This document shows, piece after piece, positions 1-46,550 of a stretch of 54,966 nucleotides of DNA. The notes under the pieces were generated by a model. It searched no databases. It was not told where the DNA came from and was given only the letters and a program-made list of their open reading frames with translations. A program made the position numbers and the translations under genes. Numbering within the stretch: position 1 is the stretch's first letter; every line of letters begins with the position of its first letter. Source of the stretch: a virus (Duplodnaviria; Caudoviricetes); the IMG/VR virus record IMGVR_UViG_3300014208_000051, positions 1 to 54,966 of that record, one strand, 5' to 3'.

Positions 1-62
1 AATGTGTATATACTTGTTCAATCATTCAGTACAAATATAATAATAATAATCGACACCACCAA

Positions 63-395
63 CTAAAGACCACGTAATTTATCAATTTCTTTCTGTCTTT
101 TTTTATCATTCTGATAACCTGGAAATCTACGATAAACTAACTCAATTGATTGAATTTTTGTTATGTGATTACAAATCAATTGCTCCATAAACTTTGACAC
201 CTTCAGGATTGCAGTGTTTACATTGATATTCTTTTCAATCTCTTTGTGAAATAAACCGATTGAATAGTTATACCGATAAACATAAATTCGTTCCTCATCG
301 GTTTTCATATATTTTAGCAAACCCTCAATTGATAATTCGACAATCGAAGATAATTTTTCTAATCTGTTTCGTTTCTTCATTACATAAACCCCCAT
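63..395 (-). CDS. hypothetical protein
   Basis: 110-aa ORF in the early-type cassette array. Confidence 0.6.
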   Translation of the reverse strand: MGVYVMKKRNRLEKLSSIVELSIEGLLKYMKTDEERIYVYRYNYSIGLFHKEIEKNINVNTAILKVSKFMEQLICNHITKIQSIELVYRRFPGYQNDKKRQKEIDKLRGL

Positions 396-415
396 TTACT
401 TTCAGATTTTTTGTC

Positions 416-610
416 TTAGACTTCTTCTAGTTTAATCATTTTAGGCTGTTCGATTGGAAAACGTTCATCCAACCACTCACGCAAATCCTTTACAGATTCA
501 GGGTTAAGATTCATATTTTTTGTGTCGCCTTCAGTTGAAGTAACCTTAAACGATGCAGGATAAACACCATCAGTTTTAACCCTGTTCAATTGGTCTTTGT
601 AGTAACTCAT
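416..610 (-). CDS. hypothetical protein
   Basis: 64-aa ORF directly behind a TATCTTTG promoter (636-643). Confidence 0.65.
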   Translation of the reverse strand: MSYYKDQLNRVKTDGVYPASFKVTSTEGDTKNMNLNPESVKDLREWLDERFPIEQPKMIKLEEV

Positions 611-635
611 TGTATTTGTTTTTTAGTTTGTACAT

Positions 636-667
636 CAAAGATAAAACTATTTTTCGACACTGCCAAA
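636..667 (-). promoter_or_regulatory. Bacteroidota sigma70-type promoter (-33 TTTG, -7 TATCTTTG), representative copy
   Basis: + strand caaagata 636-643 and ccaaa 663-667; same -7 box near 32, 1005, 2180, 2999, 3664, 4500, 4988, 6107, 6949, 12256, 34298, 37762, 38951, 51950. Confidence 0.8.
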
Positions 668-979
668 TTATCTGTCACCACATTCTAACAAATAATCCAT
701 ACCATCATCTAAATCACTCCATTCTCTGTTAGGAACAATTACATTATCATAATAACGTGCATTTGCAGGACTGATTCTGGTTGTGTTATTCCTTTTAGTT
801 GGGGTTACATTGTTCCAGTAATAGTCTTTGCACTGTGTTCCTCGTTTAGTCTTGCAAAAAACCTGTTGGTAAACTTCTTTGGTAAAGAACTCACCACACG
901 AAGGACATTGACATAAATCCCCGACCTTTTTACTCTTGTTGTCGTTGTAACCCTGTTTTAATTTACTAATTGATGACAT
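668..979 (-). CDS. Cys-rich putative zinc-binding hypothetical protein
   Basis: start re-assigned to MSSISK behind promoter at ~1005; CxxC plus further Cys. Confidence 0.65.
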   Translation of the reverse strand: MSSISKLKQGYNDNKSKKVGDLCQCPSCGEFFTKEVYQQVFCKTKRGTQCKDYYWNNVTPTKRNNTTRISPANARYYDNVIVPNREWSDLDDGMDYLLECGDR

Positions 980-1105
980 TGTGTGTGTGTTTATAATTTC
1001 TATACAAATATACAAATTAATGTAATACCATCCAAATAAAAATGAATTTATTTTTCGGTAGAGGAACTTCAGATCATCGACCCGTTCCGGTGCTCCGGAT
1101 ACAAC

Positions 1106-1162
1106 ATTTTGTTTGGCTCGAAGACAAGTTGACCTTGATAATGTCCTTGAGCCAAACAAAAT
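1106..1162. repeat. inverted-repeat element copy 1
   Basis: attttgtttggctc-29 nt-gagccaaacaaaat. Confidence 0.95.
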
Positions 1163-1258
1163 AACCCCCGTTGCCATCTCCGGGCGCAGATCACCAGCAT
1201 CGTGGGCACAAAAAACCTTCGATGTAATACCGAAGGCTTTAATACAAACTTTAAAAAA

Positions 1259-1639
1259 CTATATCAACTCTAAAATCTTTCTGTATGACTGTTTATATTT
1301 ACGATAATCTTCGATTTTCAATAACCAAAGGGCGTATCGTTTATTTTCTGGAAAGTCATAACAGATACTAATCCTTTTAACATTTGGTTTTTCAGCAACT
1401 GCACGACACCAATCTTTCATGTTCTCCAATGTACCGTATGAGAATACTGTTGTTCCCTTACCGATTCCCATTATGTATGACTGAGGAGCGTATGAACCAT
1501 TCTCGAACATAATTTTTACTATTGCGAACTTATTCGATAGGATTTTCACTATCTTGTCCGTTGGACGCTCCACCTTCAACGCCTCCTCTATTGTCTTGTA
1601 ATGTGGCCTCATGTTGTATTTTTTTAATTGATTCGACAT
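1259..1639 (-). CDS. hypothetical protein
   Basis: 126-aa ORF, start uncertain. Confidence 0.55.
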   Translation of the reverse strand: MSNQLKKYNMRPHYKTIEEALKVERPTDKIVKILSNKFAIVKIMFENGSYAPQSYIMGIGKGTTVFSYGTLENMKDWCRAVAEKPNVKRISICYDFPENKRYALWLLKIEDYRKYKQSYRKILELI

Positions 1640-1695
1640 ATTTTTTTACTTCCTGTAAATTGTACCTGCTCACAATAAGTTGACCTTCAAGTGTC

Positions 1696-1968
1696 TTAGA
1701 CTTCAACGCCTTCATGAATTGTCGATGAGTTATCATATTCGTAGATTTCAGTAAGTTTATCATAACCTTGAAAAGACACCCGAAAATCGTTAAAATCCTT
1801 TTCACTTGCTAACCGAACCGTTCCATCACTAACATAAATCGTTGAACTGTTAGATAAATAACTACCTTTTAAGATTGACGTGTGTAATATACAAACTCGT
1901 TCAGGTTGTTCAGGTAAGATATAACCTAAAGTGTGTTCGTTAAATACAACTAATTTGATTCGTTCCAT
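1696..1968 (-). CDS. hypothetical protein
   Basis: 90-aa ORF, 4 nt downstream of previous gene. Confidence 0.65.
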
Positions 1969-1972
1969 TGGT

Positions 1973-2161
1973 TTAATCTATTGTTAAGTCACCACCAAAA
2001 ACATCTATAACACCAATAGTATTATGTTCGTTGTCAAAAAATTCAACTATGTACATACATCTGTCACCATAATCATATACTATGGTTCCTTTCGTTCCTT
2101 TTTTTATTTCTTTTGTGTCAACAGTTAATGTGACACAATCCAATTCGTTTAATCCGTTCAT
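1973..2161 (-). CDS. DUF4926-like small protein
   Basis: ELDCVTL...KGTKGTIV..Y...YIVEF pattern. Confidence 0.6.
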
Positions 2162-2300
2162 TTGTCTTAGTTTGTATATCAAAGATACAAATTAATGTAA
2201 TACCAACCAAATATAAATGAAACTATTTTTAAAAATGTTTATACTACAAATATACGAATTTTTTTTGATCGATCCAAGAATTCTCCAGGCTTCCTGAAGT

Positions 2301-2354
2301 CATTTTGTTTGGCTCAATGGTAACTGTTCCTGTAAGACAGAGCCAAACAAAATG
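2301..2354. repeat. inverted-repeat element copy 2
   Basis: cattttgtttggctc-24 nt-gagccaaacaaaatg. Confidence 0.95.
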
Positions 2355-2463
2355 GTGAGGTGATCGCAGCTCCGGACGCGTGTGGATACGAAGTCCGTCT
2401 TCGTAAAAACAAAAACCCCCGATGTAATACTACACCGAGGGTTTCACAAACTATATACAAACT

Positions 2464-2823
2464 TTATAAAACACCAACTGTCACAAGGTACGGAATCGTT
2501 TGTTCGTAAGTAAAAAACTCAATCCGTTCCTTTAAGTATTCAACGGTTAACGTGGTACTTTTTGAATCCCCTGTGTTATGGTTAATACCCAACACCAAAC
2601 CGTTTCCCCCGAGTTTCATATTGTTACCCTTGAATCCAAAAAACTTTGAATTTTTGTCAATGTGCAACAACCCTTCGTCATCAACATATATGTCGTTCTT
2701 ATTGTCAACCCGAACAACATCGAACAAATCACATCCAATCTTTTTTTGAATGTCTTTATAGTCACCTACTTCGACTTCTGTAATCGTTTCAGTCTTCACG
2801 TCAATTAATATACCTTTTTTCAT
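2464..2823 (-). CDS. DUF3846-like protein
   Basis: IQKKIGC...IYVDDEGLL...GNGLVLG motif. Confidence 0.7.
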   Translation of the reverse strand: MKKGILIDVKTETITEVEVGDYKDIQKKIGCDLFDVVRVDNKNDIYVDDEGLLHIDKNSKFFGFKGNNMKLGGNGLVLGINHNTGDSKSTTLTVEYLKERIEFFTYEQTIPYLVTVGVL

Positions 2824-3109
2824 TACAATTTGATTTTACCTGTTAATACACTATAACCTAACCAAATAAAAACACACCCAATAATAAAGGGGAATAAATG
2901 GAAACTGTTTAACTGATGGTAAACAATTGATATTCCAAAATACAATCCGATTAATCCTAATACGATTTTCATTTGTCTTTGTTTTAAAGTTTGTACTTCA
3001 AAGATATAAAATAAAACAATACCAACCTACTAAAAATGAATTTATTTTCAATCTTTTTTGTATTATTTTCGCGATCCCGATGCGCCTGAAGATGCCCCGC
3101 ATCATCACC

Positions 3110-3151
3110 CATTTTGTTTGGCTCGAATTATGTTCAATAGAGCCAAACAAA
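3110..3151. repeat. inverted-repeat element copy 3
   Basis: 15-nt spacer containing TTATGTTCAAT. Confidence 0.95.
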
Positions 3152-3206
3152 TTGACGACCCTCGCAAACAGGTACGCTGGATCTTCAGTCCCAAACTTCT
3201 TGGATA

Positions 3207-3241
3207 TAAAAAAACCTCCACCGATTTCTCGATGAAGGTTT
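3207..3241 (-). terminator. intrinsic terminator (near-identical copy at 5703-5734)
   Basis: aaaaaaacctccaccgatttctcgatgaaggttt: hairpin followed by a T-tract on the - strand. Confidence 0.6.
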
Positions 3242-3259
3242 CCCCGAATTGATTTATGT

Positions 3260-3625
3260 TTATTCCATAACCACAACTGAAACCAATAACCTTTTTTTCG
3301 GTGACCAGTTTTTCATGTAGTCTTCAACGAATTGATAAAATCCATACGGTGAATCGGCCACCTTCTGACTCATTTTATCGAAACTCTTTTGTGTCTTAGG
3401 TTGTTTCAAACCCAACAATTTAACCCCTGCGAAAAGTTCACGGTCAACTGTCCGTTCGTCAACATCTTTCTGTGTACCCAAATGAATTGAATGTTCAGGG
3501 TTCATACCGATTAATTGTTGACCATCCATTTTCATCATAAATGACTGAATGAGTAACATGTCTTTACTTAACAATGTTTGTTCATCCTTTGATAACTCCT
3601 TTTGATTTTTTCCGTAATAGTTCAT
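3260..3625 (-). CDS. hypothetical protein
   Basis: 121-aa ORF with its own promoter and terminator. Confidence 0.75.
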   Translation of the reverse strand: MNYYGKNQKELSKDEQTLLSKDMLLIQSFMMKMDGQQLIGMNPEHSIHLGTQKDVDERTVDRELFAGVKLLGLKQPKTQKSFDKMSQKVADSPYGFYQFVEDYMKNWSPKKRLLVSVVVME

Positions 3626-3765
3626 GACGTTGTTGTTTTAAAGTTTGTAATTGATTAACACAACAAAGATATAAAACTATTTTGAATATACAACTATATT
3701 ATACTTTTATTTTTAAATTATTTTTAGGGTGGGCCTGTGCGAATCCACTGCACAGATCACCTAAG

Positions 3766-3815
3766 TTGTTTGGCTCATGAACATAATGGTATATATGTAA
3801 GACAGAGCCAAACAA
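3766..3815. repeat. inverted-repeat element copy 4
   Basis: 28-nt spacer; dif-like CATGAACATAA-TGGTAT-ATATGTAAGAC. Confidence 0.95.
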
Positions 3816-3911
3816 AATGACGACATCCAGCGCGTATGACCCTCTTCCAGCGCTTCTTGAGCATAAAAAAAGGTGACTGTTGCCAGCCACCCTTTAATAC
3901 AAACTTCAAAA

Positions 3912-4475
3912 CTATTTGATGTACAAACTTTCTTTATAATATAAACGGTTTGCATTGTAGTCAGCCACTTCATTATGTTTACCCACTTTACCGTACAACC
4001 TTTTTACATTTCGGTAAATATCCGAACTTGGTCGGGTTCTGTAATTCTTAACCAACTCACAAAACAATTCATTTGATTGGTCAACTTCGTATTGACTTGC
4101 CGTAATACCAAAGTAGTCGGCTTCCCCAACTTCACTAATGAACATACCTGTGTGAAACCCTTCTAATTTGAACCGATTAACATAAATGTCGGCATTACAC
4201 CAAATATATACATTGTTAGGGTTGTTACTTAATACCTTCACAAATGATTCATCAATGATATGACCCTTATAACCGATAAACCCGCCAGCAGTCAAAAGTC
4301 CATAAGGTGAACCATGACCCATTATCATAACTCTGTCGTAGTCGGGAATGATTGTACGAATTTCATCCTGTCGGATTCCGTCACCTGTTAGAACTGTTAT
4401 ACCCTTCATTCCTTTGTAGATAATACTTAAAAAATCTGTTGATTCGTCTTTTGGATGAATGATTAATGTTTTCAT
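3912..4475 (-). CDS. hypothetical protein, possible caspase/gingipain-like (His-Gly...Cys) fold
   Basis: IMGHGS...YIWCNA; fold assignment is inference. Confidence 0.7.
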   Translation of the reverse strand: MKTLIIHPKDESTDFLSIIYKGMKGITVLTGDGIRQDEIRTIIPDYDRVMIMGHGSPYGLLTAGGFIGYKGHIIDESFVKVLSNNPNNVYIWCNADIYVNRFKLEGFHTGMFISEVGEADYFGITASQYEVDQSNELFCELVKNYRTRPSSDIYRNVKRLYGKVGKHNEVADYNANRLYYKESLYIK

Positions 4476-4544
4476 TTCGTTGTTTTAAAGTTTGTACGTC
4501 AAAGATAAGCTTTTTTATAATACCAGCCAAATAAAATGAAATTA

Positions 4545-4961
4545 TTATTTATATCCGAAACAAATTGATATACCGTTGTCTTTCACATAAATGGCGTACT
4601 TTGTGTACTTAGGATTGTAGGTGAAATTTGACGCGTTAGTCTTTAAATAAGTAACAAGGTCAAAATTATTATGGTTCAATAAATTGACCCCTATAAAACA
4701 AACGTTGATGCTAATGCCACCCATCTCATTAATGATTGTCATCACGTTCGGAAATTCACCGTTTTTGTTAAAGTAATTTGTACATTTTTCACAAACTATT
4801 AACAATTCGGCATCCCATTCTAAAATTCCTACAGGAGGAGTAGCGGTAATCCTTAAATTGTTAATTGATTCAAGATATGTGTTTTTTTCTTCAGGAATAA
4901 TATCCTCTTTGGTACAAGAAACCAAAACAAGTAATACCACAAACAAATAAATCCTTTTCAT
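4545..4961 (-). CDS. putative lipoprotein
   Basis: MKRIYLFVVLLVLVS-C lipobox. Confidence 0.65.
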   Translation of the reverse strand: MKRIYLFVVLLVLVSCTKEDIIPEEKNTYLESINNLRITATPPVGILEWDAELLIVCEKCTNYFNKNGEFPNVMTIINEMGGISINVCFIGVNLLNHNNFDLVTYLKTNASNFTYNPKYTKYAIYVKDNGISICFGYK

Positions 4962-5079
4962 AACCATATACTTTAAAGATTGTATAGCAAATATACACAT
5001 TAATGTAATACCATCCAAACAAATATAGATTTATTTTCACGACCATCCTCGATGCGCCCAAAGCTGAGATCAACCGTCT

Positions 5080-5120
5080 TTTTGTTTGGCTCACGTTATG
5101 TTCAATAGAGCCAAACAAAA
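5080..5120. repeat. inverted-repeat element copy 5
   Basis: 15-nt spacer containing TTATGTTCAAT. Confidence 0.95.
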
Positions 5121-5175
5121 TGAACACCATGTCATCTAACTGTACAGGATTAACATTTATCAAAAAAAAAAGGAA

Positions 5176-5475
5176 CTAATCGTTCCCATTCTCTTTAATG
5201 ATACTTAATATCTGACCCCAATACTTTGGCAACATCTTACTTACTCTGGCCTTGTGTTTCTCGTTTAAATGATTAGATTTGTCCGTCAATAACCATTCAG
5301 CAACCCAAGTAAGATAACGACAATCAGAAGAATTGAACCCTCTATTATTTGAAACTTTTGTTTCCTTAATCTTTTTTTCATCTTCAGTTTGTCTGTGATA
5401 GAGAACAATAACACCCCTTTCCATCCACCGAGAATCATTTTTTAATTTGTCTATAATGTTGTCTTTTGTAAACAT
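5176..5475 (-). CDS. conserved-looking phage hypothetical protein
   Basis: LYHRQTEDE...NNRGFN...KYWGQ. Confidence 0.75.
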   Translation of the reverse strand: MFTKDNIIDKLKNDSRWMERGVIVLYHRQTEDEKKIKETKVSNNRGFNSSDCRYLTWVAEWLLTDKSNHLNEKHKARVSKMLPKYWGQILSIIKENGND

Positions 5476-5608
5476 AGTATAAAAATTTAAGTGATATACT
5501 TTGTATTATTACTGATATGAAGTAACTCAAATAAATCCACATTACCAAATATTTTGCCATTTATTTTTTATAACTATCCTCGGTGCATCTGGAGATGAAA
5601 TCAATCGT

Positions 5609-5653
5609 CATTTTGTTTGGCTCAATTTAACATAATCTGAGCCAAACAAAATG
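5609..5653. repeat. inverted-repeat element copy 6
   Basis: 15-nt spacer with ATTTAACATAA, the exact reverse complement of the E. coli XerD arm. Confidence 0.95.
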
Positions 5654-5757
5654 TCCCATATTTGCGCGCCCAGGCGCGCATGGATCAAACTTTATCCAAA
5701 ACAAAAAACCTCCACCGATTTCTCGATGGAGGTTAAAAATCAAAATAAAAAGTTATA

Positions 5758-6081
5758 TTACGCGTTTGAAAGATTAGAAATAAAACCGATTTTCTTAGCC
5801 GGTTCGATAGGTTCATCGTCTGTCAACAGACCCAAAAAATTATCTTCGTCAAGTTCATATGGTTCAATGTTACCATCGTTTTCTGTCAACTGAAAAACAA
5901 TATGTACTGATTCAGTATCGTTAAATTCAACATAACCAACGGTTGACTTTTCGGTGATAATCCATCCCAAATCGATAAAGGTATTAAGTAAACGATTTAC
6001 AAATTCATCCGACATATCGGTGTTGTTAACAACGTTAACCAAATTTTCACCGTCTAATACAAATTGAATGTTCTTTTTCAT
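5758..6081 (-). CDS. acidic hypothetical protein
   Basis: 107-aa ORF with its own promoter and terminator. Confidence 0.7.
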   Translation of the reverse strand: MKKNIQFVLDGENLVNVVNNTDMSDEFVNRLLNTFIDLGWIITEKSTVGYVEFNDTESVHIVFQLTENDGNIEPYELDEDNFLGLLTDDEPIEPAKKIGFISNLSNA

Positions 6082-6212
6082 TGTGTTTGTTTTAAAGTTT
6101 GTACTTCAAAGATACAAATTTATTTTTAATATCCTACAATAAAATAGATTTATTTTTAAATTATTTTCACGACCATCCTCGATACGCGCCCGGACGCATC
6201 CGGAACTCCCTT

Positions 6213-6263
6213 TTTGTTTGGCTCAATCTAACATAACTTTTATTACGTTCAGAGCCAAACAAA
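6213..6263. repeat. inverted-repeat element copy 7
   Basis: 27-nt spacer; dif-like ATCTAACATAA-CTTTTA-TTACGTTCAGA. Confidence 0.95.
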
Positions 6264-6301
6264 TTCTTCCACCTTTATCTCCGTCCCGTGTCGTCCAAAC
6301 T

Positions 6302-6329
6302 ACTTAACATAATATTATTTATACCTAAC
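6302..6329 (-). other. dif-like XerC/XerD site (11-6-11)
   Basis: - strand GTTAGGTATAA ATAATA TTATGTTAAGT versus E. coli dif GGTGCGCATAA TGTATA TTATGTTAAAT. Confidence 0.55.
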
Positions 6330-6373
6330 AAAAAAAACCCCTTTCGGGGTTCTTTTATTATGTTCGTTTGGTG

Positions 6374-6910
6374 TTATTCCACTTCGTAAACCACACCATT
6401 TAACGATAAGGTTTTGATGTTTTCAATCTTTGGGGTGATTACAGAAACAACCCTTTCTTGGTCTTGTCTTGTCGTTTCAGACGGTTTTTTTAACCAACCT
6501 GATAACAATTCCCTTTCGGGTTCGGTCATTGGTTCATCGTTTTTCAAGTATTCAACTTTCGGTTTAACTTCGTCAAAACGTTCAACCATCAAATAATATG
6601 TTAAACCTGTTTTGTCGTCAACCAAAACACATTTGGAAACGTGGGTTTTTCCACTTGGTTTCATGGATTGAAAATCCCCATCCAAACCTTCCTTTTTTTC
6701 GTTACTGTTGACCCTATCTTCGTAACCGTTACCGATTAGATAGTTACAGTTTGTTACTTTTTTAACGATACCAAAAAAAGGATTTCCCCCTTTGTTCATC
6801 GTTGGTACAGTTACCATAGTCACGTTGATAAACGTTGATTTTTCAACTTGTTTCAATACTTCAACCAATTCAGGAACTGAAACTTTTACCACTTGTTTTT
6901 CTGTTGTCAT
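6374..6910 (-). CDS. hypothetical protein
   Basis: 178-aa ORF, promoter at 6949, cUUCGg-type terminator at ~6331-6352. Confidence 0.8.
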   Translation of the reverse strand: MTTEKQVVKVSVPELVEVLKQVEKSTFINVTMVTVPTMNKGGNPFFGIVKKVTNCNYLIGNGYEDRVNSNEKKEGLDGDFQSMKPSGKTHVSKCVLVDDKTGLTYYLMVERFDEVKPKVEYLKNDEPMTEPERELLSGWLKKPSETTRQDQERVVSVITPKIENIKTLSLNGVVYEVE

Positions 6911-7031
6911 TTCGTCGTCGTTTTAAAGTTTGTAATTTGATAACACTACAAAGATAAAACAATATTTCATACCACCAAAATAAAACTACATTTATTTTTC
7001 ATGTTCGATAACATACGAAAATGTTTGGAAG

Positions 7032-7086
7032 TTATCCATAAACCCTTATCAGTTTTCTTTGAAAACTGATAAGGGTTTATGGATAA
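7032..7086. repeat. perfect 26-bp inverted repeat with 3-nt centre
   Basis: ttatccataaacccttatcagttttc-ttt-gaaaactgataagggtttatggataa. Confidence 0.95.
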
Positions 7087-7090
7087 AATA

Positions 7091-7132
7091 TTGTTTGGCT
7101 CAATGAACATAATGTAGGTGTGAGCCAAACAA
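7091..7132. repeat. inverted-repeat element copy 8
   Basis: 20-nt spacer starting AATGAACATAA. Confidence 0.95.
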
Positions 7133-7473
7133 ATTAGACCGACCCATTTTAAGACGATTTAAGACACGATAATTGTGGATGGTATTCGTTGTATGGTTTC
7201 ATGGGGTTCGTTTAAAGAACGTCACGAATGACCCACATAACGACCTACCCTACACTATCCCCACCATACCTCTGTACACCCATAGGGTACACCCCCCCCC
7301 TGCCGTATCCCCCCTTATATACCCCCATTTATCATAGTCTAAACAGGGGGTTAATGATCCGAGAGAAATATTTTGGCATTTTTTTGGTGTTTAGGGAAAG
7401 GTCAATAATATTAAAAAAAAATCTGGAAAAAATTTTGATAATTTGGAATTTTTATGTATTTTTAAATAAAAAA

Positions 7474-7806
7474 ATGAGTACAAAATTTGAAAGGACGAAT
7501 CATGATGACATTCTCAGGTCGTATAGTAAATTTCATGATTTAAAAAAAGTGTCTGATGAAATGTTAGTATCTGAGTATATTGTAAAAAAACTATTAATTA
7601 GTAGTGGGGTTGATTATGATTATACAAAAACCAAAGTAGATCGTGTTATTGGTTTATTGGATCATGATGAAGTCATAAAAAAATACCATGAAATCGGACA
7701 CACCAAATCAACGGCAAAATATTTTAATATATCAGTAACATCATTAGTAATAATTTTTGGAGTAATATTCAGCGGCTTCCTGTTGAGTAGGGAAATATTT
7801 AGGTAG
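7474..7806 (+). CDS. small protein with two HTH-like repeats (possible homing endonuclease remnant)
   Basis: start re-assigned to MSTKFE; 3' end overlaps the opposite gene. Confidence 0.45.
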   Translation: MSTKFERTNHDDILRSYSKFHDLKKVSDEMLVSEYIVKKLLISSGVDYDYTKTKVDRVIGLLDHDEVIKKYHEIGHTKSTAKYFNISVTSLVIIFGVIFSGFLLSREIFR

Positions 7807-8061
7807 TTGATGCATAACAGAAATAGGTTTCTTGAATTGAGAGTGATCAACAACACTGCATAATCTTTCTTTAGGATTAATTTCAAGGATTTGAAGACAA
7901 AATAATTCGTCCATATCCCAACCGTGTTCCATGAAGTAACCGCCAGGTTGAGCATTTTCCCATCGTTTTTGTTCTTCAATCCATTTTTCGCAAAGAAGAA
8001 TTATATCTTCGCCTGTAAGGTCTTCTGCGATGGATTTAATTTCATCTAATGTTTTAGTCAT
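7744..8061 (-). CDS. hypothetical protein
   Basis: 105-aa ORF in a tight minus-strand run. Confidence 0.6.
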   Translation of the reverse strand: MTKTLDEIKSIAEDLTGEDIILLCEKWIEEQKRWENAQPGGYFMEHGWDMDELFCLQILEINPKERLCSVVDHSQFKKPISVMHQLPKYFPTQQEAAEYYSKNYY

Positions 8062-8281: not shown

Positions 8282-8492
8282 CTTCCCATCTAATTATTTG
8301 TTTAGAATTTATTTTCGCGGCAGGGTCAATCGAAATTATATAATTCATTGTTGTGCCGGAAACAAAAGTTTGTCTAGTAAGATAATCCATTGTTGTGCCG
8401 GAAACAAAAGTTTGTCCAGTAAGATAATCTGTTGTCATGCCAGAAATAAAACTTTCGTCATAAAGTTTATAAGGTCTACCGAATTTAAACAT
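8271..8492 (-). CDS. small protein with 14-aa tandem repeats
   Basis: 42-nt repeat encoding FVSGTTMDYLTxQT about 2.5 times. Confidence 0.55.
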   Translation of the reverse strand: MFKFGRPYKLYDESFISGMTTDYLTGQTFVSGTTMDYLTRQTFVSGTTMNYIISIDPAAKINSKQIIRWEDEL

Positions 8493-16931: not shown

Positions 16932-17083
16932 ACTTTCCTTATTTATTTGTTATTTTAATTTTTATTTGTTGGTCTTTCTCCAACTCGAATGTCTCAAGGA
17001 CACTAAAAATTAAACCACAAGGTTCAAGAATAAATATACATATAATTTGTAATAAAGTCAATGATATTTATATTAAAAAGGAT

Positions 17084-17686
17084 ATGAGCTTAAACATTGA
17101 AAAATTAAGAGGGAAAGTTCCAGATGTTGTTTTTGGGCAAATAAACACAGTAATAACACTATTTGAAGTAAATACTTCATTAAGAATGTCACATTTTATG
17201 TCGCAATGTGCCCATGAGTCGGGGTTTTTTAAATTAACTGAGGAAAACTTGAATTATTCGGCTAAAGGACTTTTAAGCGTATTTGGAAAATATTTTGATA
17301 AGGACGACGCGCTAGAATATGAAAGACAACCTGAAAGAATAGCATCGAGAGTCTATGCTAATCGAATGGGCAACGGTGATGAGGAAAGTAAAGAAGGTTG
17401 GAAATATCGTGGTAGGGGTTACATTCAATTGACTGGTAGACATAATTACGAAACTTTAGGAAAATTATTAAATGTAGATTTAGTCGAAAGACCTGAATTT
17501 GTTGCTACGAGATACCCATTATTGTCAGCCGCTTGGTTTTGGAAAACAAATGGATTAAATGAAATTGCCGATAGAGGTGACACATTTGAAGTTGTAACAA
17601 AAATAACTAAACGTATCAATGGTGGTATACTCGGTTTAGATGATCGTTATTCATATTTTGAAAAATTCAACAATTTATTAGATTAA
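17084..17686 (+). CDS. glycoside hydrolase family 19 endolysin
   Basis: QCAHES, ENLNYS, YRGRGYIQLTG, ITKRINGG motifs. Confidence 0.93.
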   Translation: MSLNIEKLRGKVPDVVFGQINTVITLFEVNTSLRMSHFMSQCAHESGFFKLTEENLNYSAKGLLSVFGKYFDKDDALEYERQPERIASRVYANRMGNGDEESKEGWKYRGRGYIQLTGRHNYETLGKLLNVDLVERPEFVATRYPLLSAAWFWKTNGLNEIADRGDTFEVVTKITKRINGGILGLDDRYSYFEKFNNLLD

Positions 17687-42567: not shown

Positions 42568-42636
42568 TACCGATAGCCAGAATCGAACTGGCCTGTTCTT
42601 CCTTATGAGAGAAGATGTTCACCTTGAACTATCGGC
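42568..42636 (-). tRNA. tRNA-Met/Ile2 (CAT), short D region
   Basis: CTTCT-CTCATAA-GGAAG. Confidence 0.65.
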
Positions 42637-42643
42637 ATTTATT

Positions 42644-42719
42644 TGGGGTGAAAGATGGGACTCGAACCCACAATTTATAGAACCACAATCTATTCGGTTA
42701 CCATTACCGCACAATCACC
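42644..42719 (-). tRNA. tRNA-His (GTG)
   Basis: ATAGA-TTGTGGT-TCTAT, encoded CCA. Confidence 0.85.
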
Positions 42720-42729
42720 ATAAAATTTG

Positions 42730-42807
42730 TCAACCAGATGGGATTCGAACCCACGTAATCGTGATTCACAGTCACGTCCCGAACTACCAATCACGGGTTG
42801 CTGGAGG
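42730..42807 (-). tRNA. tRNA (GTG), weak acceptor stem
   Basis: CGTGA-CTGTGAA-TCACG. Confidence 0.55.
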
Positions 42808-42825
42808 GATGTATTTTCATACTTG

Positions 42826-42911
42826 CGGAAGATGCTGGGATCGAACCAGCGGGCCGATTTCTCGACCACAGTTTAGCAAACTGCCCCATTAAACCACTCT
42901 GGCAATCTTCC
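42826..42911 (-). tRNA. tRNA-Ser (GCT)
   Basis: cloverleaf with long variable arm. Confidence 0.9.
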
Positions 42912-43125
42912 ATTGAAATTTTCGATTATGTTTCCAAGTTCGATACATTCTTACTTGGTAACTCATCAATTGTTTTCCCGAATTTTTGAATCCCCTTCTA
43001 TATCTTGGGTAAAGATTTAATCCTTCATCCCAATATGGATCAAAATAATCAGGTTTAGTTACTACATTGTACTCTTTTCTGCAAGTTGTAGTTTTTGCCA
43101 CTTTTGATTTCTTGTACGGTTTCAT
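42889..43125 (-). CDS. basic hypothetical protein in the tRNA array
   Basis: 78 aa ending RTWKHNRKFQWK; 3' end overlaps tRNA-Ser. Confidence 0.55.
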   Translation of the reverse strand: MKPYKKSKVAKTTTCRKEYNVVTKPDYFDPYWDEGLNLYPRYRRGFKNSGKQLMSYQVRMYRTWKHNRKFQWKIARVV

Positions 43126-43187
43126 AATATTAAGTTATTTAAACCTAATATCCATAGAATCTCCTCATATTAATCAATTTTAATTTG

Positions 43188-43260
43188 TCGGCTGACCCAG
43201 ATTCGAACTGGGATTACGAACTTATCAGATTCGCATCCTAACCTATTAGATGATCTGCCG
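43188..43260 (-). tRNA. tRNA-Ile (GAT)
   Basis: CGAAT-CTGATAA-GTTCG. Confidence 0.8.
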
Positions 43261-43269
43261 AATTGTTAT

Positions 43270-43353
43270 TGGTTGGGATGATCGGGATTGAACCGACATT
43301 TTCACTTACCAATTACCCGTAGCTATCTTATCAGGATAGAGGGTTACATCCCA
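43270..43353 (-). tRNA. non-canonical tRNA (GAT), anticodon arm nested in D-stem
   Basis: TGGGATG TA ACCC [CTATC CTGATAA GATAG] GGGT AATTGG...T arm, CCA. Confidence 0.65.
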
Positions 43354-43364
43354 GTATTAATTTG

Positions 43365-43439
43365 TAGCCGCTACTGGATTCGAACCAGTGACCTTCTGTG
43401 TGTAAAACAGATACTCTGAACCAACTGAGTTAAACAGCC
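43365..43439 (-). tRNA. tRNA-Val (TAC)
   Basis: TCTGT-TTTACAC-ACAGA. Confidence 0.9.
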
Positions 43440-43578
43440 ATAATTAAAAACCTTACTTTACTACACACTACTTGTACTTCGTAGCTAATGCCGGTTGGTT
43501 AACTGTGCGAACACAGGATTTTTATCCGATCACATCCAACGTCTTGTTTGTGACCATCACGAGCATTTCGGGTTTTCG

Positions 43579-43654
43579 TGGCTAATACCGGATTCGAACC
43601 GATGATCTTCTGTATGTAAGACAGACGCTTTAAAACCAACTAAGCGAAGAAGCC
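43579..43654 (-). tRNA. tRNA-Val (TAC)
   Basis: TCTGT-CTTACAT-ACAGA. Confidence 0.85.
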
Positions 43655-43664
43655 ATAATGTTTG

Positions 43665-43751
43665 AGGGAAGGGTGAGATTCGAACTCACGGTGGAACTTA
43701 CGTTCACTAGATTAACAGTCTAGACTTTTCGGCCTCTAAAGCAACCAACCC
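43665..43751 (-). tRNA. tRNA-Asn (GTT) with long variable arm
   Basis: CTAGA-CTGTTAA-TCTAG plus GAAC-GTAA-GTTC arm. Confidence 0.75.
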
Positions 43752-43757
43752 ATAATT

Positions 43758-43919
43758 TTAATTCAATTTCTTTCTTAAATCCGCAATCTTTGTAAGATAA
43801 TCACTAACACTAATTTCCTTTGTGTTGGATGTCTTTTGTGTTAAGTTTTTTCTCATTTCACCTTCAAGTCTATCGATTTCCTCTTGTAACTTGATTCTTT
43901 TTTTGTCAATTTTGCTCAT
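43758..43919 (-). CDS. 53-aa coiled-coil peptide
   Basis: MSKIDKKRIKLQEEIDRLE... between the two tRNA-Asn genes. Confidence 0.5.
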   Translation of the reverse strand: MSKIDKKRIKLQEEIDRLEGEMRKNLTQKTSNTKEISVSDYLTKIADLRKKLN

Positions 43920-43933
43920 AACTTAAATTTCTG

Positions 43934-44018
43934 AGGGAAGGGTGGGATTCGAACCCACGATGAGCTTACGCTACCAGATTAACAGTCTGGACTTTTCGGC
44001 CTCTAAAGCAACCTACCC
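43934..44018 (-). tRNA. tRNA-Asn (GTT) with long variable arm
   Basis: near-duplicate of 43665-43751. Confidence 0.75.
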
Positions 44019-44555
44019 ATTAATTATTGTAACACCTTCATGAATTTCCCCGTGACAATTTGAACAAACTAATACACATTTATCAACTTCATTTTTTAAT
44101 TTTTCAAAAGATAACGATTTGCCTGAAATTGAAAAATCTTTTTCATTTGAATCTCGATGATGAAAATGTAATGAAGTTGAGCATTTATCGTAACCACAGA
44201 TTTCACATTTACCACCTTTATATTCAATTAATCTTAATTTTACTCTTTTTCTCCATAAAATTACTGATTCTGAAGAAGTTTGACGTGTCTTATTTTTTAA
44301 GGTAACATATTTTTTAACAGTTTCATATGCGTGACCTTTTAATTTAGCTACTTTTTTTAAACTTCCAATTTCATCATACAATTTTTGTAATTCAATTTTA
44401 TCAGTATCATTCAATCTATCAGAACATCCACCTAATTTTTCTAAATTACAATGATATGAAACCGTTGATAATGCACATTTTAATTCTTTACTAATTGTTT
44501 TAAAGGACTTTCCTTGTTTTCTTAATTCAATAATCTTTTCGTAATATCTACTCAT
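44013..44555 (-). CDS. HNH homing endonuclease with N-terminal HTH
   Basis: CEICGY...LHFHH...CVLVCSNCHGEIH. Confidence 0.85.
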   Translation of the reverse strand: MSRYYEKIIELRKQGKSFKTISKELKCALSTVSYHCNLEKLGGCSDRLNDTDKIELQKLYDEIGSLKKVAKLKGHAYETVKKYVTLKNKTRQTSSESVILWRKRVKLRLIEYKGGKCEICGYDKCSTSLHFHHRDSNEKDFSISGKSLSFEKLKNEVDKCVLVCSNCHGEIHEGVTIING

Positions 44556-44611
44556 TATTAACATTTTTAGTTAATAATAAATATACATAAAAATAATCAA
44601 AATAAAAAATG

Positions 44612-44684
44612 TGGTCTGAAACGGGATCGAACCGCTGACGCGAGACTCTTCAGGCCTCCGCTCTACCTACTGAGCTACCAAACC
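44612..44684 (-). tRNA. tRNA-Phe (GAA)
   Basis: canonical cloverleaf. Confidence 0.9.
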
Positions 44685-44799
44685 ATAGTTTAAAGGATAT
44701 TCCCGAATAAATGTCCACCCATCATCGGCGCTAACGGCCCATAATATGTGACAAACTACCCACGCGGGAACGTGTATTGTTCCATTTACATATCCTTAG

Positions 44800-44872
44800 T
44801 GGTATTGGGTGGACTCGAACCACCAACGCGAGGCTCTTCAGGCCTCCGCTCTACCATTAGAGCTACAACACC
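44800..44872 (-). tRNA. tRNA-Phe (GAA)
   Basis: canonical cloverleaf. Confidence 0.9.
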
Positions 44873-44883
44873 ATTATTTTAAG

Positions 44884-44957
44884 TAGAGTAGACCGGACTC
44901 GAACCGACAATCCCAACGTCCCAAACGTTGTACCCTAACCAATTAGGCCACTACTCT
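44884..44957 (-). tRNA. tRNA-Pro (TGG)
   Basis: CAACG-TTTGGGA-CGTTG. Confidence 0.85.
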
Positions 44958-44970
44958 ATGTTTAATTTTG

Positions 44971-45045
44971 TCGGAATAATGAGATTCGAACTCATAATAA
45001 CCCTCATTCCAAGTGAGGTAACCACACCTAATGGATCGCATCCCG
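44971..45045 (-). tRNA. tRNA-Pro (TGG)
   Basis: CCTCA-CTTGGAA-TGAGG. Confidence 0.75.
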
Positions 45046-45060
45046 ATAATTGTTATTTTG

Positions 45061-45146
45061 CTGTCCCAGTGAGTCTCGAACTCACAAACCCTTTTGAGGC
45101 ACCAGAGTCAAAGTCTGGCGTGTCTATCCAATTCCACCACAGGACA
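45061..45146 (-). tRNA. tRNA (TTG, Gln anticodon) with Leu-like D arm and long variable arm
   Basis: CCAGA-CTTTGAC-TCTGG plus GCCTC-AAA-AGGGT. Confidence 0.7.
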
Positions 45147-45213
45147 ATCTTTAATTTAAATTTCTACGCTACCGTTTTCTGAACGGTCTATGAAATTCTA
45201 ACAGTCTAGCTCG

Positions 45214-45286
45214 TTGTTCTATTAGGGCTCGAACCTAAACTATCCTGAACCAAAATCAGACGTGTTACCGATTACACCATAGAACA
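45214..45286 (-). tRNA. tRNA-Gln (TTG)
   Basis: TCTGA-TTTTGGT-TCAGG. Confidence 0.85.
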
Positions 45287-45315
45287 ATCTTGTTGAAGGA
45301 TATTGTTTATCCTTG

Positions 45316-45404
45316 CGGAAGCCGTGAGGCTCGAACTCACACGCCGTTTCACCGACCTAATAGTTTTCAAGACTATCCTCTTAAACCAATTTGAGTAGAC
45401 TTCC
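45316..45404 (-). tRNA. tRNA-Ser (TGA)
   Basis: ATAGT-CTTGAAA-ACTAT, long variable arm. Confidence 0.9.
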
Positions 45405-45432
45405 ATTTTTTTTTATTATACTACCATCATGT

Positions 45433-45645
45433 CAAAGAACAAAAAAAAAATCCGAACATTTTGTGTCCGGACTTTCTTTTATATTGAGTAAACTTATTTA
45501 CATCATGTATAAAATATTTCCGAACACTTCACCATTGGTGATTGCACATTAATATTAATACCGTTATGACTAAACGGGTTCATAATACTAAACGATTGCG
45601 ATATGTTCATGATATTTTTCATCTTATTGTTTTTTATAAATATGT
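45433..45645 (-). promoter_or_regulatory. leader-peptide attenuator 1 upstream of tRNA operon
   Basis: TATTTATA, 39-aa uORF 45622-45503, TGTTCGGA anti-terminator, terminator 45441-45474, boxA-like motif. Confidence 0.55.
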
Positions 45646-45733
45646 TACTTTTTGTTTAATTCTTAAATACTGTACAAATATATGAATAATTTTTTAATTT
45701 GCCAAGTATTTTTCAACTTTTTTTATTTTTTTG

Positions 45734-45810
45734 TCCTCTAAGTGGGATTCGAACCCACATGTGACCAATTACCCTTTCTACGGTGTATAAGACTGAGGGG
45801 ATACTAGAGG
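45734..45810 (-). tRNA. non-canonical tRNA (TAT), anticodon arm nested in D-stem
   Basis: CCTCTAG TA TCCC [..CTTATAC..] GGGT AATTGG...GTGGGTTCGAATCCCAC. Confidence 0.65.
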
Positions 45811-45812
45811 AT

Positions 45813-46055
45813 TTACTTTCCGTTATATGGCTTTACTCCTGTTAATTGTACGGGCTTTAAACCGTCAAACTTAACCGAATACTCCATCATGTTCGGATAT
45901 TTGTTCAACACTTCTTTGGTTAACTCTTCCATTTTAAAGGCCGTTTTCCAAATTTCTGACTCGTTCAAATGTTTCCTGATGTCAGTATCATTCACAGGGG
46001 AATAAACTTTTTCATCAACTAAACTACTTCCCATCATCTTACTTAATAGTCCCAT
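45813..46055 (-). CDS. hypothetical protein
   Basis: 80 aa behind a TATCTTTG promoter. Confidence 0.6.
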   Translation of the reverse strand: MGLLSKMMGSSLVDEKVYSPVNDTDIRKHLNESEIWKTAFKMEELTKEVLNKYPNMMEYSVKFDGLKPVQLTGVKPYNGK

Positions 46056-46174
46056 AACTTCTGTTTTTTAATTACAGTACAAAGATACTACTTAATTTTG
46101 ATACTGCCAAACTTTTCAGAACTTTTTTCAAATAATTCACCTATTACAATGTTTTATAGAATTATTCGAAACAG

Positions 46175-46246
46175 AGGCTAGTACTGGAGTCAAACCAGTC
46201 TAATAGGTTTTGCAGACCCACACTTAAATCGCTCAGACAACTAGCC
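46175..46246 (-). tRNA. tRNA-Cys (GCA)
   Basis: TGGGT-CTGCAAA-ACCTA. Confidence 0.75.
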
Positions 46247-46256
46247 ATTAATTTAG

Positions 46257-46331
46257 TAGGGGAGATGGGACTCGAACCCACATCGTCCAATTACACTAAT
46301 ACAGTTTAGAAGACTGTTGTGATACACCCCC
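46257..46331 (-). tRNA. non-canonical tRNA (TCT), anticodon arm nested in D-stem
   Basis: GGGGGTG TA TCAC [ACAGT CTTCTAA ACTGT] GTGT AATTGG...T arm. Confidence 0.65.
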
Positions 46332-46338
46332 ATTTTTG

Positions 46339-46412
46339 TGATTCTGAAGAGATTCGAACTCTTAACAAACTGAATAGGAATCAGTTATTCTTTCCATTTG
46401 AATTACAGAACC
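46339..46412 (-). tRNA. tRNA-Arg (CCT)
   Basis: ACTGA-TTCCTAT-TCAGT. Confidence 0.8.
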
Positions 46413-46550
46413 AAAATTATAATTCCAAACCTACTAACTTTGTACCACACCCGAGCCGGAGTCGAACCGATTCAGTCAGGGAGCCGAACCCTTCCTAAGT
46501 TAATAATTTACTACCGTTCAATATCCTTTCAGAAGATATTGGAATTATTG

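Follow-up and report, generated by a model that had tools for sequence, protein, structure and literature searches.

In T4-type phages, the closest described counterparts of the locus analysed here are the PeSL modules, repeated intergenic stretches of ~100-250 nt that contain both a terminator and a strong early promoter of host type (PMC2839356, PMC4122927). In the accounts given there, the stem-loop of a PeSL doubles as terminator and either overlaps the promoter or lies next to it, the modules cluster where a T4-like myovirus has its hyperplastic region of small ORFans, and relatives differ by gene insertion, deletion and replacement at the modules, for which homologous recombination was proposed (PMC2839356, PMC4122927). 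Here, we analysed a 54,966-nt stretch of phage DNA (hereafter the window), a fragment, 19% complete, from a T4-like jumbo phage of Bacteroidota. All ORFs in positions 1-7000 are small and lie on the minus strand, and we found that eight exact inverted pairs of the form TTGTTTGGCTC–N15-29–GAGCCAAACAA are placed at 1109–7132, with none elsewhere in the window. The 11-mer TTGTTTGGCTC occurs exactly 16 times, eight times per strand, and all occurrences belong to the eight pairs, while 0.85 matches are expected by chance (sd 0.96, maximum 4 in 100 shuffles). One extra single copy with one mismatch lies within a tRNA-Tyr gene (54618-54628). Pairing of the arms is lengthened by ATT/AAT to 14-15 bp and ends 3 nt beyond the arms. 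The initial annotation had described eight paired copies with spacers of 29, 24, 15, 28, 15, 15, 27 and 20 nt and none elsewhere, all of which was reproduced exactly; its eight sites also stand, but its start coordinates were off by 0-4 nt because extra T's had been counted. The elements, E1 to E8, and a neighbouring hairpin are as follows.

1109-1159, minus strand: E1, arms TTGTTTGGCTC/GAGCCAAACAA, 29-nt loop of the GGACA/AAGACA-rich type
2305-2350, minus strand: E2, 24-nt loop beginning with TGTCTTACA on the gene-sense strand
3114-3150, minus strand: E3, 15-nt loop, in inverted orientation compared with its syntenic counterpart in 4/4 relatives
3766-3815, minus strand: E4, 28-nt loop with TGTCTTACA and ATTATGTTCA modules
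5082-5118, minus strand: E5, 15-nt loop
5613-5649, minus strand: E6, 15-nt loop in the orientation opposite to E3 and E5
6214-6262, minus strand: E7, 27-nt loop, identical in the relative L016
7091-7132, minus strand: E8, first element of the array, 20-nt loop, inverted in 2/2 relatives, without an upstream terminator
7032-7086, strand not assigned: perfect 26-bp hairpin between E8 and the first promoter

The site of this last hairpin carries another perfect hairpin of different sequence in relatives. Read on the minus strand, the module runs from an intrinsic terminator through a ~45-nt GC-rich flank, the element and a second ~45-nt GC-rich flank to a host-type promoter and a conserved leader, with the following parts in the window.

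1209-1240, minus strand: intrinsic terminator upstream of E1, loop containing GTATTACAT (read from the sequence)
2412-2445, minus strand: intrinsic terminator upstream of E2 (scan)
3206-3240, minus strand: intrinsic terminator upstream of E3 (read from the sequence)
3868-3895, minus strand: intrinsic terminator upstream of E4 (scan)
5171-5187, minus strand: intrinsic terminator upstream of E5 (scan)
5707-5734, minus strand: intrinsic terminator upstream of E6 (scan)
6336-6351, minus strand: intrinsic terminator upstream of E7, palindromic stem with a T-run on the minus strand (scan and sequence)
1003-1056, minus strand: promoter-bearing 54-nt repeat of the Bacteroidota -33/-7 type (repeat families and promoter scan)
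2178-2231, 2997-3050, 4498-4551, 4986-5039, 6105-6158 and 6947-7000: further copies of the 54-nt repeat
3664-3724: related copy of the 54-nt promoter repeat
63-6910, minus strand: fourteen small cassette ORFs (Pfam and PHROG searches)

A hairpin with a T-run precedes 7/8 elements of the window (five by scan, two read from the sequence) and 15/17 elements of the complete relative G001 (read by eye from the sequence). The 60-nt flanks have a GC content of at least 0.37 in 12 of 16 cases, compared with 0.316 for the whole window, and the strict predicted promoter TTTG-N17-21-TAnnTTTG lies downstream of 4/8 window elements and 29/49 family elements, with no case on the opposite side. This is the minus-strand order that the initial annotation had proposed. 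Among the fourteen cassette ORFs, two have a Pfam match above the curated cut-off (DUF4926, DUF3846) and seven have PHROG matches, none of them to a family of known function, with five at E <= 1e-9. Eleven -7 boxes precede ORFs in window positions 1-7200, as parts of predicted promoters. A strategy relying on the host polymerase is favoured by the canonical -33/-7 form of these promoters, and no phage RNA polymerase was recognised in G001.

Relatives, which were retrieved via protein homology and not via the motif, include two ~310-kb genomes, G001 (310,542 bp, 100% complete, a circular assembly with a 99-nt end overlap) and G002 (93% complete), both of which carry the terminator–inverted-repeat–promoter unit but with other arm sequences. 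All 17 paired elements of G001 fall within 236,426-262,064 (26 kb), in a minus-strand block of small ORFs of which 49/54 have no Pfam match, and those of G002 are grouped at 41.6-59.7 kb; the two ~310-kb genomes hold no elements outside the early block. Across the relatives this block spans 18–26 kb of small, mostly ORFan genes, and the elements are confined to it, so the motif is not scattered genome-wide. A search of 185,579 bacterial and archaeal genomes returned only seven single matches, in unrelated taxa. Lineages that keep the element design share only 28-60% identity in a marker protein. Taken together, these results show that phages of a ~310-kb clade have retained both the module and its placement, only in one block of small ORFan genes.

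The arm, of 10-14 nt, is almost invariant inside a phage lineage and differs between lineages (TTGTTTGGCTC, TTGTTTGGCA, TTGNTTGGCA, TGTTTTGGCAGTA, TTAATTGGCAA and TTTAGTCTGGA). Arms showed 2 mismatches in 1012 nt (46 elements) while the flanks had a median ungapped identity of 29-31%, an arm figure inflated by the retrieval of metagenome contigs through exact arms, a bias that only additional elements of multi-element contigs escape. Spacers in the family are mostly 11-36 nt and reach 99 nt, four G001 copies having an insert of 87-99 nt between the arms. Loops and flanks vary freely apart from one strand-polar word, GT(A/C)TTAC, which adjoins the 5' arm and was present on the sense strand in 22/46 loops and on the antisense strand in none (~0.12 expected by chance). 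The flips of short loops between syntenic elements, in E3 and E8, indicate an interaction between the arms in vivo. G002 has many single arms (32 of the 5' type and 14 of the 3' type), and position 4 of its arm is complementary in 4/11 pairs, with 0.35 expected if arms were independent.

Close relatives have a collinear gene order, yet whole cassettes were gained and lost, and L016 lacks three of the element-to-element units of the window. Some cassette junctions fall inside elements, and one, in L016, ends precisely at the border of loop and arm and leaves an orphan arm; the element junctions of L016, L037 and L044 at E3/E4 count as one shared event. Of 59 homology-block ends, 37 lay in intergenic modules, on 37% of the length, with 12 at elements, 13 elsewhere in spacers that bear an element and 12 in spacers that do not. 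The 12/59 ends within elements (±14 nt) occurred on 7.7% of the length, and the 12/59 at element-free gene boundaries on 3.8%. Block ends are enriched at both, but are no denser at elements than at gene boundaries without one, indicating that the elements are not special recombination sites. The proposal of a cassette array was borne out, with elements at transcription-unit boundaries and relatives that differ by whole cassettes.

The locus resembles PeSL, which had been named as an analogue, in its predicted host-type early promoter within a repeated module (29/49 elements), in its location in an ORFan block (17 paired elements in one 26-kb block of G001), and in indels and replacements that end at intergenic modules (37/59 block ends). 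It differs in that the inverted repeat has no T-run (U-run) and is not itself the terminator; a separate terminator precedes 7/8 elements, so that the whole module does include one, and the repeat forms a third part in the GC-rich spacer between terminator and promoter. Further differences are an arm fixed within a lineage, a loop with a polar word, and promoters of the Bacteroidota -33/-7 type. We tentatively favour the reading that the elements are an extra part of a PeSL-like composite boundary module, serving as a lineage-specific recognition site, probably for a protein.

Could the elements instead act as RNA? Transcripts reading past a leaky terminator would fold a 14-17-bp hairpin, which might serve as a 3' stabiliser, as a processing site that uncouples adjacent units in the manner of the RNase III sites of the T7 early region, or as a target bound by an antiterminator-like protein. 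The strictly gene-sense polar word (22 vs 0), the stable hairpins (z-scores of -1.6 to -8.8 in ~145-nt segments) and the excess of G-T over A-C in the inner stem on the sense strand (36 vs 8 in the window family, 8 vs 1 in G001) are consistent with this. However, the elements lie outside the predicted transcripts, after the hairpin and T-run and before the promoter. The folding advantage of the sense strand (-3.1 kcal/mol) is smaller than that of coding windows (-5.97) and of composition-matched shuffles (-4.40 ± 0.73), indicating an effect of composition, and the G-T excess may be one as well. Covariation is absent because the arm sequence itself is fixed, and the single arms of G002 are unable to fold. 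Nor did the Rfam 15 covariance models match any element at the gathering score; at E <= 5 the sole element match was a chance-level microRNA at E6 (E = 4.1). We consider a role as RNA unlikely.

Short intergenic palindromes at operon ends, sometimes arranged as inverted doublets with variable spacers, are also known as REP/REPIN and Correia-type sequences, and the elements might be selfish MITE- or REPIN-like palindromes that spread between genes and have no function for the phage. Terminal inverted arms around an unrelated interior of 11-99 nt (the four long G001 inserts included), short loops in both orientations and the existence of partial or half copies would all fit. Against such an origin, the elements are limited to one block of the phage genome, with no copies beyond the early block in the two ~310-kb genomes, keep a constant place within the regulatory unit outside the predicted transcripts, and retain their design between lineages as distant as those above. 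The scattered copies, target-site duplications and cognate transposase of a MITE or REPIN were not seen here: inspection of the printed flanks by eye revealed no flanking direct repeats, and no Y1, RAYT or DDE transposase was found among the 327 ORFs scanned in G001, whose one TnpB gene, at 106.7 kb, has no arm (<=1 mismatch) within 40 kb among the matches listed. Selfish spread is thus improbable, and we give equally little credence to the view that the arms have no function of their own and belong to a duplicated intergenic region whose copies are kept alike through gene conversion. The entire intergenic unit is indeed repeated, and concerted evolution would make arms uniform within lineages and different between them; yet flanks and loops should then homogenise too, whereas they diverge (median identity ~30%) while the arms are identical, and lineages whose arm sequences differ have the inverted-pair design and the polar loop word in common.

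Site-specific recombination, with attC-like hairpins or pdif-like sites and a dedicated recombinase moving the cassettes, is very improbable; the initial annotation had named attC cassettes and pdif modules as analogues. The elements share with integron attC sites, which have extrahelical bases and R''/R' boxes, the conserved inverted arms, a variable-length centre, cassette borders and the potential to form hairpins; elements border three cassette-sized differences that set L016 apart from the window, and the junction that leaves an orphan arm is precise. But the arms are perfect, without extrahelical bases, and their polarity is unlike that of R''/R' boxes. No IntI, attI or Pc is present, and each cassette has its own promoter and terminator rather than being promoterless under a common promoter. 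Modules of the pdif/Xer type have two 11-nt Xer-binding arms around a 6-nt spacer, whereas spacers here measure 15-29 nt within the window and 11-99 nt across the family, which does not fit crossover regions of 6-8 nt. In agreement with the initial annotation, a scan of 50 window ORFs showed no recombinase. PF00589 was found in one of five related records and in one of two near-complete relatives, namely G001, whose 267-aa tyrosine recombinase with an N-terminal SAM-like domain adjoins a SIR2 gene ~48 kb from the closest element; it is missing from G002 and three fragments, with no tblastn match in G002 or the window. Across the relatives, no recombinase is conserved. The Pfam scan of the 327 G001 ORFs gave no HUH nuclease, relaxase or serine recombinase, and no circular or joined forms were seen among the assembled contigs. 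Together with the collinear gene order and the equal enrichment of breakpoints at boundaries without an element, the spacers, the separate promoters and terminators and the distribution of the recombinase leave the integron or pdif reading unsupported. Least probable of all is a function like that of baculovirus hr, repeated imperfect palindromes among early genes that evolve along with the virus lineage and are tied to early-gene control and genome plasticity, by which an early viral factor would bind the elements as palindromic enhancers and/or replication origins: multi-copy palindromes among the early genes of a large DNA virus and a link to gene-content variation are shared, but hr form tandem clusters dispersed around genomes of another virus realm, while here single copies per unit border are all in one block and show no phasing with promoters.

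To return to the boundary module, two observations stand as counter-points to a protein-binding arm. Elements and -33 boxes are 26 to 111 nt apart, which is not the phasing expected of an operator or activator site, and the perfect complementarity of the arms (window and G001), the 11-99-nt spacers and the loop flips also fit a purely structural hairpin role. No protein binding the arm was identified; the sole ORF adjoining the array start (7474-7806) has no homologues and is missing from G001. In the reading we favour, the eight repeats would be an added component of the module that separates early transcription units, with the arm recognised in a sequence-specific manner, most likely by a DNA-binding protein that the phage (or possibly the host) specifies, and usually present as an inverted pair able to extrude as a hairpin or cruciform. 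The elements may mark or insulate the borders between units, for example by blocking read-through, by shutting off or coordinating early promoters driven by the host polymerase, or by forming a topological barrier. Because they are repeated, the modules would double as crossover points for homologous recombination, and PeSL-like cassette turnover may then arise as a by-product, with no need for a dedicated recombinase.

An exact search for the 11-mer TTGTTTGGCTC found 16 copies in the 54,966-nt window, eight on each strand, where 0.85 matches would be expected by chance. They form eight inverted pairs (elements E1-E8, each arm-loop-arm), starting at 1109, 2305, 3114, 3766, 5082, 5613, 6214 and 7091; one extra single arm with 1 mismatch lies within a tRNA-Tyr gene. 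The element array reported in the initial annotation is real, and a recount of its spacers returned the identical values of 29, 24, 15, 28, 15, 15, 27 and 20 nt. The trinucleotides ATT/AAT extend the arm complementarity to 14-15 bp, where it stops, and flank pairing more than 3 positions beyond the arms was no better than in permuted controls. A long palindrome taking in the flanks was ruled out, as in-register pairing ends at 3 nt. The dominant single-strand fold of each ~145-nt segment is the element stem, and no Rfam family matched the elements.

All ORFs in window positions 1-7000 are small and on the - strand. In the direction of the genes, a unit runs from a stop codon through a hairpin with a T-run, ~45 nt of GC-richer sequence, the element and another ~45 nt of GC-richer sequence to an A-rich stretch that holds a Bacteroidota-type promoter, then a conserved leader and 1-3 ORFs. 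The hairpin with T-run precedes seven of the eight window elements, and a strict promoter match was found at 4/8 of them and at 29/49 in the whole family (the window plus the contigs sharing its arm sequence), every one of them downstream of its element. The -33 box follows the element at anything from 26 to 111 nt, indicating a site without the phasing of a classical operator. At terminator-free junctions (668/610 and 4545/4475) there is a promoter repeat or a short spacer and the element is absent, indicating that the elements mark terminator-to-promoter boundaries. Two of the 14 cassette ORFs matched Pfam above the curated cut-off (DUF4926 and DUF3846), and seven had a PHROG match, all of unknown function and five at E <= 1e-9. 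The ORF at 7474-7806 was considered as a candidate arm binder and rejected, having no homologues.

Several other features were observed in and around the array. Between E8 and the first promoter lies a perfect hairpin (7032-7086; 26 bp, 3-nt loop), and the related contigs L016 and L044 carry a different perfect hairpin at this site, indicating that the structure was kept while its sequence was replaced. Upstream of the array start lies a non-coding C-rich stretch of ~330 nt with C runs (7133-7470); it is conserved in L044 and a contig of run X4 (77% identity). The leader word ACAAACTTTAAAA precedes start codons on the gene strand, and its reverse complement stands right after the stop codon in three cassettes (1243-1260, 2446-2475 and 3897-3915, + strand); the 5′ and 3′ mRNA ends of these cassettes could pair, or the post-stop copies may be what is left of inverted cassettes. 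At 8340-8465, overlapping ORFs on both strands contain a 42-nt repeat in three tandem copies (100%, 95% and 67% identity).

The window is the whole IMG/VR record, with a completeness of 19% (CheckV) and a GC content of 31.6%. The rest of it also encodes an RNA ligase, a CCA-adding enzyme and glycosyl- and methyltransferases, together with the following RNA genes:

51034-51448, - strand: full-length GOLLD RNA (280.7 bits, gathering score 150)
33828-34231, - strand: tmRNA
42568-54643, - strand: about 25 tRNA genes

These RNA genes stand among several HNH/homing endonuclease genes, the RNA ligase and the CCA-adding enzyme, and a PHROG 'RNA-binding protein' (phrog_850) is encoded near them.

The exact element pattern matched nothing in IMG/VR besides the window, and megablast of window positions 1-8000 against phage records gave no match. 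In metagenome contigs the pattern was found at 46 loci, 43 of them distinct after dropping three overlaps. We excluded 20 of the 43 as unrelated hairpins, judging by GC content, flanks and neighbouring genes; among them are one locus on a Bacteroidota chromosome, recovered from seven samples, and others neighbouring carotenoid or chromate-transporter genes. The remaining 23 contigs have low GC and window-like flanks and, where long enough, carry arrays of 2-5 elements; adding the window brings the total to 49 elements, of which 46 are non-redundant. Scanning IMG/VR with a 9-nt arm core added array contigs carrying 5, 3 and 3 copies. The scan also gave one exact hit in each of three contigs of 335,630, 334,492 and 356,312 bp, which are candidate members of the clade. 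Across 185,579 bacterial and archaeal genomes the pattern occurred seven times, as single copies in unrelated taxa, by which host-genome copies of the element were ruled out, indicating that the arrays are specific to these phages.

Two other hairpins came up in these searches. A Bacteroidota chromosomal locus (L012, L013, L018, L022, L034, L038, L048 and L074) has identical 11-nt arms and a GC-rich inner stem with compensatory changes between samples; it lies 4 nt after a T9SS subtilase gene, and with T's before and A's after the hairpin it is not a standard terminator. The second, of ~70 nt and unrelated to the elements, occurs in single copy with the 9-nt arm core in 19 IMG/VR contigs of 5.5-61 kb (L098, L100, L104, L110, L118-L120, L124, L127, L132, L138, L147, L148, L155, L157, L168, L171, L173 and L174). 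Its interior is conserved, its outer stem varies between contigs with complementarity kept, and it sits just upstream of an ATG; no Rfam match was found, and the hairpin may represent a cis-regulatory RNA from a different group of phages.

Relatives were also found independently of the motif. With the protein of 6374-6910 as query, seven IMG/VR loci were obtained at 28-60% identity, two of them in ~310-kb records (G001 and G002). With the exception of the most distant one (L057), these loci have repeated inverted pairs at equivalent places, with other arms:

Arm sequences of the elements in relatives of the window
G001: TTGTTTGGCA
L056: TTGTTTGGCAA
G002: TTGNTTGGCA
L052: TGTTTTGGCAGTA
L051: TTAATTGGCAA
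L053: TTTAGTCTGGA

G001 (310,542 bp) is 100% and G002 (310,691 bp) 93% complete. All 17 paired elements of G001 lie at 236,426-262,064, in a block (230-262 kb) transcribed leftward among genes that run rightward; 49 of the 54 block ORFs have no Pfam match, and the unit order is that of the window (terminator, flank, element, flank, promoter, leader). The element cluster of G002 lies at 41.6-59.7 kb. In four G001 elements (249,517; 255,455; 257,454; 259,898) an insert of 87-99 nt separates the arms. These inserts hold a TTGATnATCAA palindrome and an internal hairpin, and the same palindrome was seen in 36-37-nt loops of five further IMG/VR contigs (L101, L111, L114, L151 and L164). G001 is a T4-like myovirus, with gp23-, gp25- and gp32-like proteins, an S77 prohead protease, a tail sheath and Dam-type methylases; no phage RNA polymerase was recognised in it. 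Its ends overlap by 99 identical nt, indicating a circular assembly, so that the physical ends are not given by the sequence. Other genes of G001 are:

187,476-189,023 (L067:7476-9023): tyrosine recombinase, 267 aa, adjoining a SIR2-family gene
106,734-107,936: solitary TnpB (IS605 OrfB)
17,017-17,553: ribosomal protein bS21 (S21 domain)
114,139-114,945: sigma-70-family factor

Taken together, these results show that the element design is conserved across a clade of ~310-kb Bacteroidota phages.

The arms of the window family show 2 mismatches in 1012 nt, a figure biased by the retrieval of the contigs through exact arms, while ungapped identity between the 45-nt flanks has a median of around 30%. 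Among the further elements on multi-element contigs, which were not individually selected, only two carry a mismatch, one each. The loops are assembled from a few recurring words. In 22 of 46 loops the gene-sense strand carries GT[AC]TTAC no more than 2 nt from the 5′ arm, with ~0.12 expected by chance, and in no loop is the word on the antisense strand; a second word, TTATGTT, occurs 16 times in sense and five times in antisense. GTATTAC or a 1-mismatch variant recurs in the loops of G001, G002, L051 and L053 despite their different arms, its place or strand not being uniform in L051 and L053, and in the window lineage the GT[AC]TTAC word is also found in the promoter spacer and two terminator loops. 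GTATTAC resembles the nonanucleotide of CRESS-virus Rep proteins; a nick site for an HUH nuclease was set aside, as no HUH protein was found among the scanned G001 ORFs.

Comparison of syntenic loops between the window and its relatives revealed inversions of the 15-20-nt loops of E3 (4/4 relatives) and E8 (2/2), in which 10-13 of the 15-20 positions match once inverted, whereas the orientation is kept in E7 (2/2), E2 (4/4) and E4 (1/1). Since a stretch of 15-20 nt can hardly be inverted by duplex looping, the flips probably arose when paired arms underwent exchange or template switching, which would mean that the arms meet in vivo at least occasionally. No flipped GT[AC]TTAC loop was found among the family loops, and this absence suggests that the orientation of the word is under selection.

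The inverted pair is perfect in the window and in G001, but not in G002. The G002 block has 32 arms of 5′-type and 14 of 3′-type, many units consist of flank and one arm joined directly to the A-rich stretch of the promoter, and arm position 4 is complementary in 4/11 pairs, as for independently varying arms. Counted in the same way, G001 has 5 and 4 orphan arms, of which one 5′-type and one 3′-type look spurious on inspection, and a further orphan arm stands at a cassette junction of L016. Judged from these sequences, the pattern points to recognition of the arm itself, the inverted pair being usual and not obligatory. The arms were also considered as mimics of the -33 box: the window arm with a GGTATTACAT loop resembles the promoter's TTTGGatGGTATTACAT, but the arms of other lineages are unlike their -33 boxes, and the idea was not upheld as a general rule. 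The word TGTGGATAAC, similar to a DnaA box, was seen ~10 nt upstream of the -33 box in most early promoters of L053 and several of L052.

The window and its relatives of 77-90% identity are collinear, apart from units missing or replaced in the relatives. Three element-to-element units are missing from L016:

1259-2164
3260-3625
5176-5475

At one L016 junction, a single element links the left E5 flank to the right E6 flank; another junction consists of a full element, 52 nt and an orphan arm with the E4 flank, and is shared by L037 and L044. L043 is without 668-979, its breakpoints lying in promoter/leader repeats, and L047 is without one gene inside a unit. We then counted the 59 internal ends of homology blocks:

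Distribution of homology-block ends (share of ends; share of length)
Elements ±14 nt: 12/59; 7.7%
Rest of element-bearing spacers: 13/59; 25.9%
Spacers without element: 12/59; 3.8%
Coding sequence (several ends within 10 nt of a gene end): 22/59; 62.7%

This distribution indicates exchange at gene or unit boundaries in general, with the elements as one class of boundary, and agrees with the homologous-recombination model proposed for PeSLs, the promoter-early stem-loop cassettes of T4-type phages (PMC2839356).

The initial annotation had stated that no recombinase is encoded in the window, and none was found in the scanned window genes. The tyrosine recombinase of G001 is absent from G002 and three fragments; when the G001 recombinase, SIR2 protein and sigma factor were tested in G002, only the sigma factor was present (59% identity). 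A conserved recombinase or OmpR-like regulator was rejected, the G001 proteins having no match in G002 or the window and only the sigma factor being common. No HUH nuclease, relaxase or serine recombinase was found among 327 G001 ORFs compared with Pfam, a set made up of the block ORFs and of ORFs of at least 90 aa elsewhere, below 700 aa and within one scanned stretch; ORFs of at least 700 aa lying within one stretch were scanned against PHROGs only. Exact DNA breaks at the arms were rejected: of 40 contig ends, 14 are found at varying distances of up to 160 nt from an element and one is inside an arm, as expected from assembly breaks at repeats, in a weak test, since the search pattern cannot retrieve contigs ending inside an element. 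As to circles and non-adjacent joints, the joints seen in Logan contigs of the probable source runs fall in promoter/leader repeats.

Overall, the array behaves as PeSL arrays do and has in addition a boundary motif of lineage-fixed sequence. The literature on such an element yielded PeSL papers only, and a paper on bS21-encoding phages (PMC9723584) uses 'repeat' only in a CRISPR context, with no mention there of palindromes, hairpins, promoters, intergenic or early. The reading we tentatively prefer, at somewhat less than even confidence, is that a protein recognises the arm, which would thereby mark or insulate early transcription units, with cassette turnover arising as a by-product through homologous recombination. 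A role of the elements at the RNA level is unlikely: the sense strand does fold better, but coding windows and composition-matched shuffles show a larger bias, and the advantage, which vanished against these controls, was not accepted as evidence. It is quite unlikely that the arms are programmed sites for a lineage-specified DNA enzyme or loader that reads structure or sequence (a nickase- or resolvase-like activity on the extruded hairpin, for instance) and makes early units exchangeable and insulated. Early-gene units would then swap between co-infecting phages as a recombinase-independent 'phage integron' within terminator-promoter junctions, and the loop flips and the orphan arm at the loop/arm border would be traces of the activity. 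A selfish palindrome seems improbable, and equally so a functionless repeat whose uniformity is kept by gene conversion. We regard a dedicated recombination site as very improbable, and an hr-like enhancer or origin as the most doubtful reading.

Giant Bacteroidota phages are abundant in lakes, sediments and groundwater, and to our knowledge no member of the ~310-kb clade is in culture. For any member of this clade, the element offers a way to recognise from sequence how far the early region and its transcription units extend, and it points to a putative lineage-specific factor that reads the arm. If the arm is a protein-bound insulator or exchange site, it would be a third functional part beside the two known from the promoter-terminator cassettes of T4-like phages and would help to explain the fast turnover of blocks of ORFan and probable anti-defence genes. 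If the arm is inert, PeSL-style modular shuffling is still shown to reach phages of a distant host phylum whose promoter grammar is different.
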